Source: a virus. From it: 64,000 bases of DNA. The stretch spans positions 30,012 to 94,011 of IMG/VR virus record IMGVR_UViG_3300031949_000013; one strand, given 5' to 3'. Below the pieces are notes generated by a model. The model had not been told where the DNA came from and did not search any database. It saw nothing but the letters and a program-made list of their open reading frames with translations. Positions 49,128 to 58,080 of this stretch are shown piece after piece; the stretch's first letter is position 1; every line of letters starts with the position of its first letter. The position numbers and the translations under genes are program-made.

Positions 49128-49239
49128 GAGACGACAAGAGGTGCCGAGAGGTGCCTCCATTAGGCGACCAGGCGAAAGTTGTCTTTGGCGCCCGGTATTG
49201 AAATCGAATCAATTGTACTCCCAAGCTGGCATTCGTCTC
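49128..49239 (-). ncRNA. Y RNA-like 1 (permuted tRNA cargo)
   Basis: GAGACGAATGCC..GGGAGTACAAT, T-like arm, closed acceptor, D-like arm, TTGTCGTCTC. Confidence 0.8.
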
Positions 49240-49241
49240 GG

Positions 49242-49313
49242 AGCGGGTAGGGGGAATCGAACCCCTCGTCGTCTGCTTGGAAGGCAGACACTCTACCATT
49301 GAGCTATACCCGC
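49242..49313 (-). tRNA. tRNA-Gly(TCC)
   Basis: Loop CT-TCC-AA. Confidence 0.92.
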
Positions 49314-49316
49314 GTG

Positions 49317-49859
49317 TCAGACTGACCACAGAAAGTGACCTAAATCTTCTGCCCAGTCCTCGGCGCCTTTGGCCGAAGGATGGATCCCATCGTTGATCAA
49401 TTTGATGCCCAATGGTTCAGCATCGTGAACCCGATCCGCACCACTCTCTCGGATACCTTTGCGAACAGCGTCGATTGGGTAACGTAACTTCGGGGGTAGA
49501 AGCCAAACAACCTGGACTTTACGTCGGTAAGCTAGTGCAACGAGACGCTTGGCTCTCTCTGGAAACTTCATTCGATTCACCGGCACGCCATGATCGTTGA
49601 CGCCCAACGAGATCAAGACCCTGTCGGGCTTGTATTGCCGGAGAGCATCCACGAACCAGTGTTCCTTAATCCACTGGTCCACGTTGGTCCCACCTCGTGC
49701 TGAGGTATGGAGCTTCTTGCCGTACTTCTTGGCAACCCGCCACAACCGAGGAGACAACATGTACGCCAGACTGTCTCCGATCAGGAGCGTCGGTCTCGAC
49801 TCAGACGCTAGAAGCCAGGGACTTATGAGACTGGCCAGAAGAAAAGCACGTCGGTTCAT
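49317..49859 (-). CDS. SGNH/GDSL hydrolase with Tat-like signal
   Basis: MNRRAFLL, IGDSLA, LGVND, DGIHP. Confidence 0.88.
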   Translation of the reverse strand: MNRRAFLLASLISPWLLASESRPTLLIGDSLAYMLSPRLWRVAKKYGKKLHTSARGGTNVDQWIKEHWFVDALRQYKPDRVLISLGVNDHGVPVNRMKFPERAKRLVALAYRRKVQVVWLLPPKLRYPIDAVRKGIRESGADRVHDAEPLGIKLINDGIHPSAKGAEDWAEDLGHFLWSV

Positions 49860-49867
49860 GTTACCGG

Positions 49868-49938
49868 AGCGGATGACGGGAATCGGACCCGTGTCCCTAA
49901 CCTGGCAAGCTAGGACTCTACCATTGAGCTACACCCGC
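49868..49938 (-). tRNA. tRNA-Gly(GCC), second copy
   Basis: Loop TT-GCC-AG. Confidence 0.85.
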
Positions 49939-49941
49939 AAG

Positions 49942-50052
49942 ACTGTGACTGACCCCTGTCGGGCTTCCGTGTATAAGACGGAGTGGGGACCATCCCCAAA
50001 CGAACACCACCAGGGCACTCGTGCCGGAATCGAACCGACTATTTATCACAGC
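49942..50052 (-). ncRNA. Circularly permuted tRNA-like RNA retaining a TAT anticodon arm
   Basis: Order: closing stem, T-arm, closed acceptor, D-arm, anticodon arm TCCGT-CTTATAC-ACGGA, closing stem. Confidence 0.6.
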
Positions 50053-50108
50053 TTCCTATTCGGTTGTCTCCACAAAGGAGTGCCGAGAGGCGAGGCCGTT
50101 CACCTCGG

Positions 50109-50179
50109 AGCCTCCAGAGAGAATCGAACTCTCGCCGGTCCCATACCAAGGGACTACTCGACCTTCGAGCTATGGAGGC
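50109..50179 (-). tRNA. tRNA-Thr(GGT)
   Basis: Loop TT-GGT-AT. Confidence 0.9.
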
Positions 50180-50303
50180 ATTGGGCAGTCTCTCCTGCTG
50201 TTACACCACTGTGGCAGGTGTCGCCCTCCGTTGTGCTGGAGACGCAGTCGAAGAAACCGGTGGTCCCACGATCCAAAAGATCGTCATCCGCTGCTTCGGC
50301 TAG

Positions 50304-50374
50304 TGGAGCCAGAGAGAATCGAACTCTCATTTCCAGCTTGCAAGGCTAGCACACTCCCGTTGTGTTATGGCCCC
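50304..50374 (-). tRNA. tRNA-Ala(TGC)
   Basis: Loop CT-TGC-AA, G3:U70. Confidence 0.92.
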
Positions 50375-50383
50375 ATGGTTGGG

Positions 50384-50459
50384 TGGTACCCCCGCTCGGA
50401 TTCGAACCGAGAAACAATCAGCTTCGAAGGCTGAAGCCTGTATCCATCAGGACGAGGGC
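50384..50459 (-). tRNA. tRNA-Arg(TCG)
   Basis: Loop CT-TCG-AA, CCA. Confidence 0.85.
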
Positions 50460-50461
50460 AT

Positions 50462-50538
50462 TGGTTGCAGGAGCCGTGTTGCACCGGCATGGCCAAGGTT
50501 ATGAGCCTTGGTTGGGAGCTAGGACTACCCTTCCTGCG
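50462..50538 (-). tRNA. tRNA-CAT, initiator-like (C1:A72), atypical D/T loops
   Basis: Loop CT-CAT-AA, CCA. Confidence 0.7.
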
Positions 50539-50539
50539 G

Positions 50540-50613
50540 CGTCTCTGGCAGGAGTCGAACCTGCATGAACCCAGCTTCGGAGGCTGGTGCCTTATCCATT
50601 AGGCCACAGAGAC
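50540..50613 (-). tRNA. tRNA-Arg(CCG)
   Basis: Loop CT-CCG-AA. Confidence 0.92.
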
Positions 50614-50865
50614 ATTGTGAATCAGTCTCAATCGACGACGAAGCTTCCGCATCGCCTGCCACTCGATCTGGCGAACCCTCTCTGCACTCAGTCCAAGAAT
50701 GAAAGCAATCTCTTCCAGGCGGGTCTCTCCAACATCGGCGAGATCCAAGACACAAAGAGTGTCACTGTTGCTGGTTCTTTGGTGGTACACGCAGGAAGAC
50801 CACTTGCAAGGTCTTGCCTCGTTAATCCCTCCAGGTAAGCAGTCACCACGTGTCTTCGGATCCAC
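50599..50865 (-). CDS. Small Cys-rich protein with sigma70 region-4 HTH
   Basis: TRLEEIAFILGLSAERVRQIEWQAMRKLR. Confidence 0.75.
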   Translation of the reverse strand: MDPKTRGDCLPGGINEARPCKWSSCVYHQRTSNSDTLCVLDLADVGETRLEEIAFILGLSAERVRQIEWQAMRKLRRRLRLIHNVSVA

Positions 50866-50892
50866 AGAATCACCGCTACACCAAATAGTTTG

Positions 50893-56387: not shown

Positions 56388-56396
56388 ATTTGCTTC

Positions 56397-56457
56397 GAGT
56401 TGACTAGGTGTTGCGAAGACTTCGTTTAGCCATTGTAATCCTCACGGCATTCAACTC
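56397..56457 (-). ncRNA. Y RNA-like 9 (minimal, stem only)
   Basis: GAGTTGAATGCCGTGAGGATTACAAT..GTCTTCGCAACACCTAGTCAACTC. Confidence 0.75.
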
Positions 56458-56464
56458 TCAGCGG

Positions 56465-56535
56465 CAGGGCTAGTAGGAGTCGAACCCACTCGGCAACGGA
56501 TTTGGAATCCGTCCGGCTACCTCAGCCTTAGCCCT
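56465..56535 (-). tRNA. tRNA-Trp(CCA)
   Basis: Loop TT-CCA-AA. Confidence 0.85.
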
Positions 56536-56952
56536 AAGTTTTACCCAACCTTGCTCGCGTGCTGTCTTTCGGCGATGGCAGTTGGCGCACCGAACCTCGC
56601 ACTTCAACATCTCTAATTGAATCTTGGCCCAGGAGTGACCGTTCATAATCATCCTAGCTATACCAGCCAACTTCTTCCCTCGAACATGATCCCAATCGAG
56701 GACTACAAGGTCATTCTCCCCGCAGTCTACACAAGATTTCCCTTGAAGGATTTCGAACACCCTCTTCCGACTCTCGTGCCTCTTGGCCAAGGTTCTCAAC
56801 CTGAACGGTTTGGGATTGTCGTAATACCCTTTCAGATTGACTTTCCGTTGGCACTGGCGGCAGATGCTCTGGCGAGTGCCCTTCTTTTTCGACCGCCAAT
56901 TGAAGTCCTTCTCCGGATCTTTCGGGTGTCTGCACTTTGGACATGTCCTCAT
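56470..56952 (-). CDS. HNH-like endonuclease reading through tRNA-Trp
   Basis: CPKC, CRQC, CVDCG...DWDHVRG...KCEVRCANCHRRKT. Confidence 0.82.
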   Translation of the reverse strand: MRTCPKCRHPKDPEKDFNWRSKKKGTRQSICRQCQRKVNLKGYYDNPKPFRLRTLAKRHESRKRVFEILQGKSCVDCGENDLVVLDWDHVRGKKLAGIARMIMNGHSWAKIQLEMLKCEVRCANCHRRKTAREQGWVKLRAKAEVAGRIPNPLPSGFDSY

Positions 56953-57176
56953 GCCTCTAAACTACCACAAGTAGTTGGAGCAACAGCCAAGAAAATTTAG
57001 CGGAACGGCAGAGCACCATTTGCCGTCCCTCATTGTATTCAGGTAGGTGACCCTATTGAGGCTAGAGTGGCGTACCTCAAACGGTGCAATTTGATCCACC
57101 ATCAGCCAGACTTTCCTGGCAGTCAACTCTCGTTACTTGTGCTAGCTGGTCCAGGCAAACCTTCACGAGTGTTTCC

Positions 57177-57252
57177 TGGTCCCTCAGGTTGGAATTGAAC
57201 CAACACCTTCTGCTCTTCAGGCAGACGCTTCCACCAGGTTAGCTTCTGAGGG
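57177..57252 (-). tRNA. tRNA-Phe(GAA), second copy
   Basis: Loop CT-GAA-GA, CCA. Confidence 0.88.
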
Positions 57253-57364
57253 TTGAGGCTGGGTTTTCGGGTTTTCACCGTGTGGTTATCCAGCAGACCA
57301 CATTCAGTGATGAGGCTCACTGCGGCCGTCAGCAGACTACTTCTTTAGCTCCGTCTGCTATGGA

Positions 57365-57438
57365 TGGTGACCCCACGGGGAATTGAACCCCGGTTCTTAC
57401 CTTGAAAGAGTAACGTCCTACCATTAGACGATGGGGCC
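57365..57438 (-). tRNA. tRNA-Glu(TTC)
   Basis: Loop CT-TTC-AA, CCA. Confidence 0.92.
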
Positions 57439-57442
57439 GAAC

Positions 57443-57511
57443 AAGTCCGACTAGGAGATGCCGAGATCTTTTTCATTTTCGGTGATTGTAATCCCGACGG
57501 CATTCGGACTC
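57443..57511 (-). ncRNA. Y RNA-like 10 (minimal)
   Basis: AGTCCGAATGCCGTCGGGATTACAAT..ATCTCGGCATCTCCTAGTCGGACT. Confidence 0.78.
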
Positions 57512-57513
57512 AG

Positions 57514-57587
57514 TAGCGGGAGTAGGATTTGAACCTACGGCCTCCGGGTTATGAGCCCGACGAGCTACCAGGCTGCTCCATCCCGCA
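57514..57587 (-). tRNA. tRNA-fMet(CAT)
   Basis: GGG/CCC anticodon stem, 1:72 mismatch, loop CT-CAT-AA. Confidence 0.92.
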
Positions 57588-57588
57588 G

Positions 57589-57661
57589 AGCCGGCGACAG
57601 GATTCGAACCCGCCTAAACCTCGTTACAAATGAGGTGCTCTCCCTAGAGAGCTACGCCGGC
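57589..57661 (-). tRNA. tRNA-Thr(TGT)
   Basis: Loop TT-TGT-AA. Confidence 0.9.
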
Positions 57662-57773
57662 AAACGTGTGTTGTGACAAAATTCAGGAGGAGACTTGCTA
57701 GACTAACAGGGTTCATCGGGTCGGATTCAAACCAACCTTGCAGGGCTCATCTGCCCCCAAAGAGACATGATTA

Positions 57774-57845
57774 AAGGCCGACGAGGTTTCGCTGTAGAAC
57801 TTGGTTCTTTACAAGAGATTGTATTCCACAACAGCATTCGGCCTT
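57774..57845 (-). ncRNA. Y RNA-like 11 (minimal)
   Basis: AAGGCCGAATGCTGTTGTGGAATACAAT..TTCTACAGCGAAACCTCGTCGGCCTT. Confidence 0.78.
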
Positions 57846-57921
57846 GGGGTGACGTACGGGAATCGAACCCGCCATTGACCGGGTCACAGCCGGCCCCCTT
57901 CACCAGTTGGGTAACGTCACC
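57845..57921 (-). tRNA. tRNA-His(GTG)
   Basis: G-1:C73, loop CT-GTG-AC, CCA. Confidence 0.9.
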
Positions 57922-57929
57922 ATAGTTTC

Positions 57930-58080
57930 AAGCGACGACGAGGATTCGAGAGACAGCCAGTGTAGGAGCCCTTCTAAGTGCCAATCTCGTGACCGAGGTC
58001 ACGAGGCGGAATCTGCCTCCGCAAGGCTCCGGGCCTGGCTTGCCCTTGGTCGATTGTAGTCCCTCAGGCATTCGTCGCTT
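57930..58080 (-). ncRNA. Y RNA-like 12 (multibranch non-tRNA cargo)
   Basis: AAGCGACGAATGCCTGAGGGACTACAAT ... GTCTCTCGAATCCTCGTCGTCGCTT. Confidence 0.8.

Follow-up and report, generated by a model that had tools for sequence, protein, structure and literature searches.

Twelve Y RNA-like genes sharing one handle are dispersed among the tRNA genes of a phage

The stretch under study, hereafter the window, comprises 64,000 nucleotides (bases 30012-94011) of a 94-kb IMG/VR viral contig, IMGVR_UViG_3300031949_000013, for which a completeness of ~20% of the genome was estimated by CheckV; all coordinates below are window positions. A stable-RNA island occupies its minus strand at ~44.9-59.1 kb, in which 48 tRNA genes and a tmRNA were detected by ARAGORN, and interspersed among them are twelve further elements, Y1 to Y12, sharing a terminal structure (the handle) that encloses an interior differing from copy to copy (the cargo) (Table 1). 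These elements recall YrlA and YrlB, the Y RNA-like RNAs of Salmonella, Mycobacterium smegmatis, and mycobacteriophages (RF02553; PMC4201824; Wang et al. 2018, 10.1101/312249). Such RNAs were surveyed by Chen et al. 2014, who reported 355 of them in 276 genomes; 22 phages with Y RNAs beside the gene for Ro60 are on record there (PMC4201824), and the occurrence of phage Y RNAs next to Ro60 is thus already known (PMC4201824; PMC12135203).

Searching the entire 94-kb contig with the regular expression AATGC..TACAA returned exactly 12 sites, all on the minus strand between 49128 and 58081. The same 12 were recovered by the covariance model R2 (see below), which bears out, at the same positions, the twelve minus-strand elements that a preliminary description of this DNA had placed in the island. 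Read from 5' to 3', the handle begins with a terminal helix S1 of 7-11 bp, followed by a 5' loop AUGC(N), a second helix S2 ending in ..GGGAY, and the hexamer UACAAU, after which comes a cargo of 17-167 nt; its 3' half consists of the S2 3' strand GUCUC.., a junction of ~8 nt ending in CUNG, and the S1 3' strand. The internal loop between S1 and S2 is asymmetric, AUGC(N) in the 5' strand facing AAnnCUnG in the 3' strand, and S2 includes a nearly invariant G-U pair. Both YRAAUGC and UACAAU are found in all 12 elements, and the 3' junction CUNGUYR in 11. Among the common end motifs proposed earlier, the AUGC loop and the CUNG junction were confirmed, but CGAAUGC is present in only nine of the twelve copies and has to be relaxed to YRAAUGC to cover them all. 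In Y10, S2 is wholly re-coded (GGUGUUGUC/GACACACC) with UACAAU retained.

Simple helix scanners gave a background of 4.7-8.6 matches per shuffled 94 kb and were superseded by a stricter scanner, then by covariance models. The short and long copies could not be aligned together by MAFFT, and a covariance model built from three short copies (R1) recovered short elements only. Nineteen handle RNAs from six genomes were aligned to R1, giving alignment A5, from which the model was rebuilt as R2; eight of the twelve window copies, namely the long ones, lie outside its training set. At E<=1, R2 detected the same 12 elements in the window and nothing else, with E values of 1.5e-14 to 4.9e-5, and no match was obtained in the remaining 30 kb of the contig.

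Table 1. The twelve handle RNA genes and the principal features around them (window positions; scores in bits).
Feature	Position	Strand	Description	Flanks	R2	Rfam
Y1	57932..58078	-	104-nt multi-hairpin cargo, no canonical T loop	starts 1 nt after tRNA-Asn; ends 11 nt before tRNA-His	47.1 (E 2.9e-10)	YrlA 32.9, full-length
Y2	57775..57844	-	minimal (YrlB-like), 70 nt, 24-nt cargo	abuts tRNA-His 3' end	57.4	
Y3	57444..57510	-	minimal, 67 nt	exactly fills tRNA-Met/tRNA-Glu gap	62.7	
Y4	56397..56457	-	minimal, 61 nt; ortholog in sibling contig L343	tRNA-Trp/tRNA-Ala gap	55.6	
Y5	56099..56237	-	95-nt cargo: two long hairpins, UUCG loops, no tRNA features	tRNA-Ala and tRNA-Thr, 3-nt gaps	35.7	YrlA 21.2
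Y6	55584..55728	-	canonical YrlA-type cargo	between tRNA-Phe and tRNA-Pro	47.6	YrlA 34.7
Y7	54528..54738	-	167-nt cargo: 23S rRNA-matching tract, then several hairpins		28.1 (E 4.8e-5)	
Y8	54053..54203	-	Leu-type tRNA mimic	abuts tRNA-Leu(GAG)	50.8	YrlA 28
Y9	53651..53756	-	CAAAUGC handle variant; T-arm-like hairpin and one other hairpin	sole copy without a tRNA directly before it; ends 4 nt before tRNA-Gln	33.9	YrlA 23.9
Y10	51707..51838	-	GCAA hairpin and T-like arm	abuts tRNA-Arg(ACG)	28.1	YrlA 29.8
Y11	51396..51538	-	best canonical YrlA: T arm, closed acceptor, D arm	tRNA-Ile and phage RNase P RNA gene	42	YrlA 47.6 (E 4e-8)
Y12	49128..49239	-	reduced YrlA-type cargo	abuts tRNA-Gly(UCC)	46.5	YrlA 20.6
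Stable-RNA island	44881..59055	-	48 tRNA genes (ARAGORN), tmRNA, RNase P RNA; hosts the 12 handle RNAs			
Phage RNase P RNA	51042..51384	-	class A, full-length	11 nt downstream of Y11		RF00010 262
RtcB RNA ligase	40621..42033	-	Pfam PF01139, 297 bits	island strand, three genes downstream of the island		
526-aa protein	42207..43787	-	N-terminal VWA domain (Pfam VWA matches)	between island and RtcB		

The cargos fall into several classes. A full domain of T arm, closed acceptor, and D arm, i.e. a sealed tRNA mimic, is enclosed in Y6, Y8, Y11, and Y12, and a partial one in Y9 and Y10; no tRNA plan is found in Y1, Y5, and Y7, which hold unrelated hairpins, or in the minimal copies Y2, Y3, and Y4 (61-70 nt). 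In the cargo of Y6, the T arm reads CCAGG-UUCGAAU-CCUGG, the acceptor stem has 7 bp and a closing loop, and the D arm is Glu-like; the cargo of Y12 presents a T-like hairpin of 4-5 bp, a closed acceptor, and a short D arm. Y8 combines a variable-arm hairpin, a T arm, a UUCG-closed acceptor, a Leu-type D arm, and an extra hairpin; its D arm nearly copies that of tRNA-Leu(GAG), and the repeat families D8 and D11 tie Y8 to tRNA-Leu genes. The leading tract of the Y7 cargo (24-28 nt) matches 23S rRNA genes of E. coli with an identity of 93-96% and, going by the E. coli sequence, is taken by us to be the helix 69/70 region. The swappable interiors envisaged in the preliminary description are therefore largely accounted for, comprising permuted tRNAs (Y6, Y11, and Y12), a Leu-type mimic (Y8), an rRNA fragment (Y7), other hairpins (Y1 and Y5), and nearly empty copies (Y2-Y4), but the anticodon-retaining mimic that it also listed could not be identified. 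Its term "library" holds insofar as the interiors differ behind a constant handle, but it overstates their diversity, since the usual tRNA-like module of YrlA recurs, with variations, in six of the nine non-minimal cargos. T-arm-like hairpins also occur in two spacers of the island, 49939-50106 and 57662-57774 (minus strand), the former having 29 consecutive nt in common with the Y9 cargo (repeat D18); these may be handle-less tRNA-like RNAs or remnants.

The terminal stems had been said to covary from copy to copy, and the claim proved correct. Within each copy, S1 is paired at all 84 positions examined (7 bp in 12 copies), as against a mean of 4.77 of 7 when the 3' strands are exchanged between copies, and each of the four outer S1 positions is occupied by 3-5 Watson-Crick pair types. 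In A5, 97.9% of the cells are paired compared with 73% in shuffled alignments, the observed values being reached in none of 500 shuffles; 12 of the 15 pairs show changes on both sides, and pairing falls to 38-54% when the partner is slid by 1-3 columns. These values are to be read with the fact that A5 was fitted to a covariance model, so that the structure is somewhat favoured by the fit. The pairing tests thus reveal strong covariation in both helices, and the 12 elements are structured RNA genes whose pairs are kept by compensatory change among paralogs and orthologs.

The same tendency is apparent among close relatives. The 102-kb contig G016 overlaps the island with 79-95% identity; Y10 is 100% identical between the two despite these diverged flanks, and the substitutions in Y11 and Y12 keep the pairing, with double changes in S2 and the sealed acceptor stem (in the Y12 ortholog, compensatory changes affect both). 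In seven short metagenome contigs the island recurs at 70-86% identity; these contigs represent a sibling lineage. In the sibling orthologs of Y6 (present in three of these contigs) and Y11, the handle, T arm, and D arm are kept and the acceptor stem is fully re-coded with compensation, the closing loop varying freely. Such substitution patterns point clearly to structural selection on the handle RNAs. The siblings also carry an extra handle RNA (L291:1463-1578 and L303:989-1104) flanked by a tRNA-Ser-like gene and tRNA-Ser(GCU), whereas the corresponding site in the present window is a 64-nt spacer; the family of Y genes hence turns over, by gain or loss, between close lineages.

The elements are tightly packed against the tRNA genes, as 11 of the 12 begin 0-5 nt after a tRNA 3' end, and in nine a gap of 3-11 nt separates the end of the element from the following tRNA or RNase P RNA gene. 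Sigma-70-like promoters were not enriched in the island (4 found versus 5.8 expected). Given the position of the starts, release by tRNA processing is likely: the handle RNAs would be transcribed within the tRNA polycistron and freed by tRNA 3'-end and RNase P cleavages, which suggests a simple biogenesis route of excision from a tRNA operon. M. smegmatis YrlA has been demonstrated to be an RNase P substrate (PMC4201824). The tRNA operon of the phage itself contains a gene for RNase P RNA, with Y11 on one side and two tRNA-Asp genes on the other, and the product of this gene is a candidate processing enzyme for the island transcript.

Evidence for a partner of the handle comes from other genomes. 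IMG/VR, GTDB genomes, and metagenome contigs were scanned with handle patterns, which gave many chance matches (the loose pattern CGAATGC-N5-10-GNNTACAAT in IMG/VR yielded mostly such matches among those listed), and only loci confirmed by a covariance model or the strict scanner were counted. Every confirmed locus outside the present lineage has a Ro60 gene adjacent on the same strand, the handle lying immediately downstream of Ro60 or within 7 kb of it in all ten independent loci. The complete 190-kb phage G001 carries Ro60 followed by six tandem handle RNAs, and phage G005 (199 kb, ~45% complete) has eight scattered in a 37-tRNA island that also holds Ro60. The bacterial loci L180 and L216 (Bryobacterales) and L246 and L269 (Pseudomonadota) contain 2-4 handle RNAs, 8-330 nt after an open reading frame of 540-570 aa that matches the G005 Ro60 with E values of 1e-115 to 1e-178, and the metagenome loci L376, L283, L297, and L338 show the same arrangement of Ro60 followed by handle RNAs. 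The G005 protein itself is matched to D. radiodurans Rsr (2NVO, E 2e-20, full length), the Ro60 of phage phiLo, and human and Xenopus Ro60. Both the Rfam YrlA and the Pfam TROVE models under-detect this subfamily, scoring 27-56 bits for the Ro60-adjacent RNAs of G001 and G005 (RF02553) and ~23 bits for the handle-linked proteins. A Pistol ribozyme match was also noted in G001 (L150:115-180; 42.5 bits versus an Rfam gathering score of 34.5), ~7 kb upstream of its Ro60 gene.

The handle thus marks RNAs that accompany Ro60, in ten of ten independent cases, and it is by such a location next to Ro60 that the Y RNAs of bacteria and phages are characterised in the literature (PMC4201824; PMC12135203). 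Since it marks Ro60-adjacent RNAs elsewhere, we infer that the handle would also serve as the docking site for Ro60 in the present phage.

Similarity to the YrlA family itself points in the same direction. An Infernal scan with the Rfam YrlA model (RF02553), suggested in the preliminary description, gave full-length alignments to eight of the twelve copies at 20.6-47.6 bits, but all of them fall below the gathering score of 69. In Y11, the handle of the YrlA consensus (CgaAUGC..GgaaCUAc ... CUuGucG) is matched together with the T arm, the closed acceptor, and the D arm. With the full-length alignments and the presence of the handle beside Ro60 in every independent locus examined, the proposed Y RNA-like identity is supported, and the 12 elements are considered, with a probability of roughly 0.7, to be genes for Y RNAs of the bacterial and phage YrlA-YrlB type, joined to the Ro60 system.

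Several observations weigh against this assignment. The RF02553 gathering score is reached by none of the twelve copies, four of which give no match at all, and sub-threshold RF02553 matches were also obtained in 9 of 14 control genomes, so that Rfam scores alone amount to weak evidence; it was for this reason that independent evidence was sought, the genomic association with Ro60 being decisive. Chen et al. 2014 defined YrlA by GNCGAAN0-1G near the 5' end, a tRNA-like domain, and a Ro60 ortholog on the same strand within ~4 kb (PMC4201824). The strict GNCGAAN0-1G motif is present in only five of the twelve copies (CGAAUG in nine), the departures from it falling in S1 and being compensated on the 3' strand, and no Ro60 ortholog was found on either side within the 94 kb, i.e. 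~20% of the genome. Neither Pfam TROVE, nor phmmer with phage and bacterial Ro60 queries, nor a subfamily HMM run with --max detected Ro60 in the 94-kb contig, and the related G016, which reaches ~20 kb past the other end, and the seven sibling island fragments are likewise devoid of it. The absence of a TROVE/Ro60 gene from the window, already remarked upon in the preliminary description, accordingly extends to the full contig and to G016. In G005, a syntenic distant relative (order island, HNH, ..., RNR, RecD; protein identity 32-47%), Ro60 lies in the interval that holds VWA, RtcB, and other genes in the present phage, by which the present lineage may be without a Ro60 of its own. Lastly, the analysis is based on metagenomic sequence throughout.

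Neighbouring genes were examined as possible disguised forms of Ro60, for which the pattern sought was an N-terminal TROVE ring of HEAT repeats, a C-terminal vWA domain, and similarity to Rsr/Ro60. Downstream of the island and on the same strand, an HNH endonuclease gene is followed by those for the 526-aa VWA protein and RtcB, the latter two adjoining just past the tmRNA and the HNH gene; the presence of RtcB in the window had been correctly anticipated. The VWA protein was rejected as a hidden or permuted Ro60, as its VWA domain is N-terminal (residues 45-182) and it shows neither a TROVE signal nor a match to the Ro60 HMM. Its nearest PDB sequences are the VWA domains of ITIH and alpha2-delta (CACNA2D) and not Ro60, and its neighbours in the ESM Atlas are generic VWA families. 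A split Ro60 with a separate TROVE-only protein was also rejected for the unannotated genes at 59418-60419, 39290-40285, and 34074-35255, which look beta-rich or carry a HELGH metalloprotease motif, do not match the Ro60 HMM, and are not HEAT-like. In searches for more of the genome, the contig-end protein used as a query retrieved only relatives at 40% identity (G021-G023), which have neither Ro60 nor handle RNAs, the VWA protein matched G016 alone, and an exact 29-mer from Y10 had no match in the metagenome contigs. The ring is judged to be encoded elsewhere in the phage genome at somewhat better than even odds, supply by the host being a good deal less probable.

Compared with known systems, the elements share with YrlA and YrlB a terminal stem, with a CGAA-type 5' motif in nine of the twelve copies, an internal loop, and a second stem, the YrlA interior in Y6, Y8, Y11, and Y12, and the reduced YrlB form in Y2-Y4, together with a nearby RtcB and an occurrence in phages with tRNA arrays. 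In bacteria, the rsr-yrlBA-rtcBA operon unites Rsr, Y RNAs, and RtcB (PMC4201824, PMC7790460), and in Salmonella rsr, the yrl genes, and rtcB form a single damage-induced operon (PMC7790460). Unlike YrlA, which is clustered within 4 kb of rsr, the twelve copies here are spread singly into tRNA slots over 9 kb of a contig without rsr, all lie under the gathering threshold, the handle is a GGGAYUACAAU variant with a fixed G-U pair, and some cargos are without tRNA features or bear a 23S rRNA tract. Thermus phage phiLo offers another phage-encoded family of Y-like RNAs with a CGAA-bearing stem-bulge-stem, Yrl1 and Yrl2, which have been biochemically shown to bind the phage Ro60 and to bridge it to host PNPase (PMC12135203); there, however, two RNAs lie directly upstream of the Ro60 gene, compared with twelve and no Ro60 gene in view here. 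Phages G001 and G005 carry the same R2 handle, and the syntenic G005 has minimal and tRNA-like cargos in its 37-tRNA island, but Ro60 lies beside or within their arrays, where the present lineage has RtcB and the VWA protein instead. Deinococcus radiodurans Yrn1 and metazoan Y RNAs likewise join a conserved Ro60-binding stem to a variable effector module, Yrn1 tethering Rsr to PNPase; however, the animal stem is a GGUCCGA bulged helix, Yrn1 has its tRNA-like arms in another order, and neither has sequence-level kinship with the elements described here. The array is therefore an unusually large and dispersed version of the known Ro60/Y-RNA system. No description of such an array size, of dispersal into tRNA slots, of non-tRNA cargos, or of separation from Ro60 was found in the literature searched, which did not extend to the published per-phage maximum copy number or to key reviews.

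The best-supported model follows the established logic of Y RNAs, in which the handle would dock on Ro60 and the module would tether or gate it. The Y RNA genes, occupying tRNA-sized slots in a long tRNA operon, would most likely be excised from the polycistron by RNase P and the enzymes that process tRNA 3' ends, an RNase P RNA being encoded by the phage. In the infected cell, the handle RNAs would assemble with a Ro60 ring originating from the unsequenced ~80% of the phage genome or from the host, and the differing modules may tether it to differing partners, such as PNPase-type nucleases and tRNA-handling enzymes, or gate the ring, alongside RtcB. The Y RNA module is known to bridge Ro60 to PNPase in Deinococcus, Salmonella, and phage phiLo (PMC4201824; PMC12135203). 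Twelve modules beside RtcB, in a phage with a full tRNA complement, would fit an RNA surveillance and repair toolkit for infection.

Should the phage have no Ro60, the twelve orphan Y RNAs could instead flood the cell to take over, retarget, or sequester host Rsr, for example by redirecting Rsr-PNPase decay or by blocking an Rsr-dependent stress or defence response. The absence of Ro60 from all nine contigs of the present lineage speaks for this, as does its position in the syntenic G005 at the VWA-RtcB slot, and the nearly identical handle at the Ro60 loci of Bryobacterales and Pseudomonadota implies that a host ring could accept the phage RNAs. Against these stand the small fraction of the genome in hand (~20% by CheckV), the sibling contigs being all short island fragments, and the fact that every other handle-bearing phage examined encodes its own Ro60, so that capture of the host protein is regarded as unlikely. 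The more elaborate form of this idea, according to which the lineage gave up Ro60 and its orphan handle RNAs, matured by the tRNA-processing machinery, reprogram the host ring as a guide or adaptor repertoire, is more doubtful still. If it were true, each cargo (tRNA-elbow mimics, a 23S H69/70 mimic, and bare handles) would steer or block the ring toward another RNA or enzyme, and the virus would encode a guide and adaptor set for an RNA-surveillance protein of its host.

A role independent of Ro60 has also to be weighed, in which the handle is bound by another protein or is a mere clamp for folding and stability, and the free tRNA and rRNA mimics soak up tRNA-binding toxins, modification enzymes, or RNase P of the host as decoys or sponges. 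The general view of phage tRNA islands is that they counter defences aimed at tRNA; the cargos imitate the tRNA elbow and acceptor, no Ro60 is nearby, and the VWA protein and RtcB are adjacent. The conservation of the handle nevertheless goes beyond pairing to the sequence itself (the loop, the G-U pair, and UACAAU), and it tracks Ro60 in all ten other loci, while the VWA protein is without an RNA-binding signature. The decoy or adaptor repertoire against host ribotoxins proposed in the preliminary description is conjecture. The canonical cargos are without an anticodon loop and cannot be decoys for anticodon nucleases, and their sealed acceptor ends make them no substrates for acceptor-end enzymes; three copies are essentially cargo-free, which would be senseless in a decoy. 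For these reasons the decoy idea is weak for the canonical copies, and the Ro60-independent explanation as a whole is given very little credence. Even less is granted to the notion that the elements are by-products without function, left where copies of a single ancestral tRNA-plus-YrlA unit are decaying within a tRNA array prone to recombination. Y1, Y6, and Y10 do have an identical S1 strand, the similarity of Y1 and Y6 reaches into the upstream tRNA, and the extra sibling element attests to turnover, but decay is difficult to reconcile with perfect S1 pairing and loop motifs in all 12, with compensatory changes in orthologs under clear structural selection, and with a Y10 that is invariant between contigs with diverged flanks.

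A number of other features accompany the array. Beyond RtcB lie genes for a GroEL-type chaperonin, ribonucleotide reductase, RecD, RecA, and replication proteins. Small HNH-type endonuclease genes are found in or beside the tRNA island at 51901-52488, 56470-56952, and 44025-44642 (all minus strand), with homologues in the G005 island, and a 688-aa open frame running off the window start (1-2064, minus strand) contains an intein splicing domain with a LAGLIDADG endonuclease. Within the island, a ~100-nt family is present in three minus-strand copies (52699-52799, 54973-55073, and 55112-55212) with a common cloverleaf, 10 compensatory pairs, a long extra arm, and a T-like arm GGGGAUCRAGACCUC. 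Were the second hairpin to serve as the anticodon arm, the three anticodons would be UGA, CGA, and GGA, and the family would be non-canonical tRNA-Ser genes that escape both ARAGORN and Rfam. Directly after Y7, a tRNA-like gene (54448-54521, minus strand) shows a weak Rfam match to tRNA-Sec (34.8 bits) and no ARAGORN call; it belongs to the repeat families D4/D6 along with tRNA-Val and tRNA-Gly genes.

The current view of Y RNAs is a modular one, in which an effector module is joined to a stem that binds Ro60, and to our knowledge only one or two such modules per species have so far been available in bacteria for testing this modularity. A single genome here supplies twelve natural combinations of handle and module, ranging from bare handles through four kinds of tRNA mimic to an rRNA-like tract, and their orthologs in relatives reveal which parts are selected, so that the tether or gate model becomes directly testable on a single Ro60 and the twelve RNAs. 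That the array appears to be separated from Ro60 further raises the question of whether phages can exploit the Ro60 of their hosts. It is as a natural test set for Y RNA modularity, and for the possible use of host Ro60 by a phage, that the array is of main interest.

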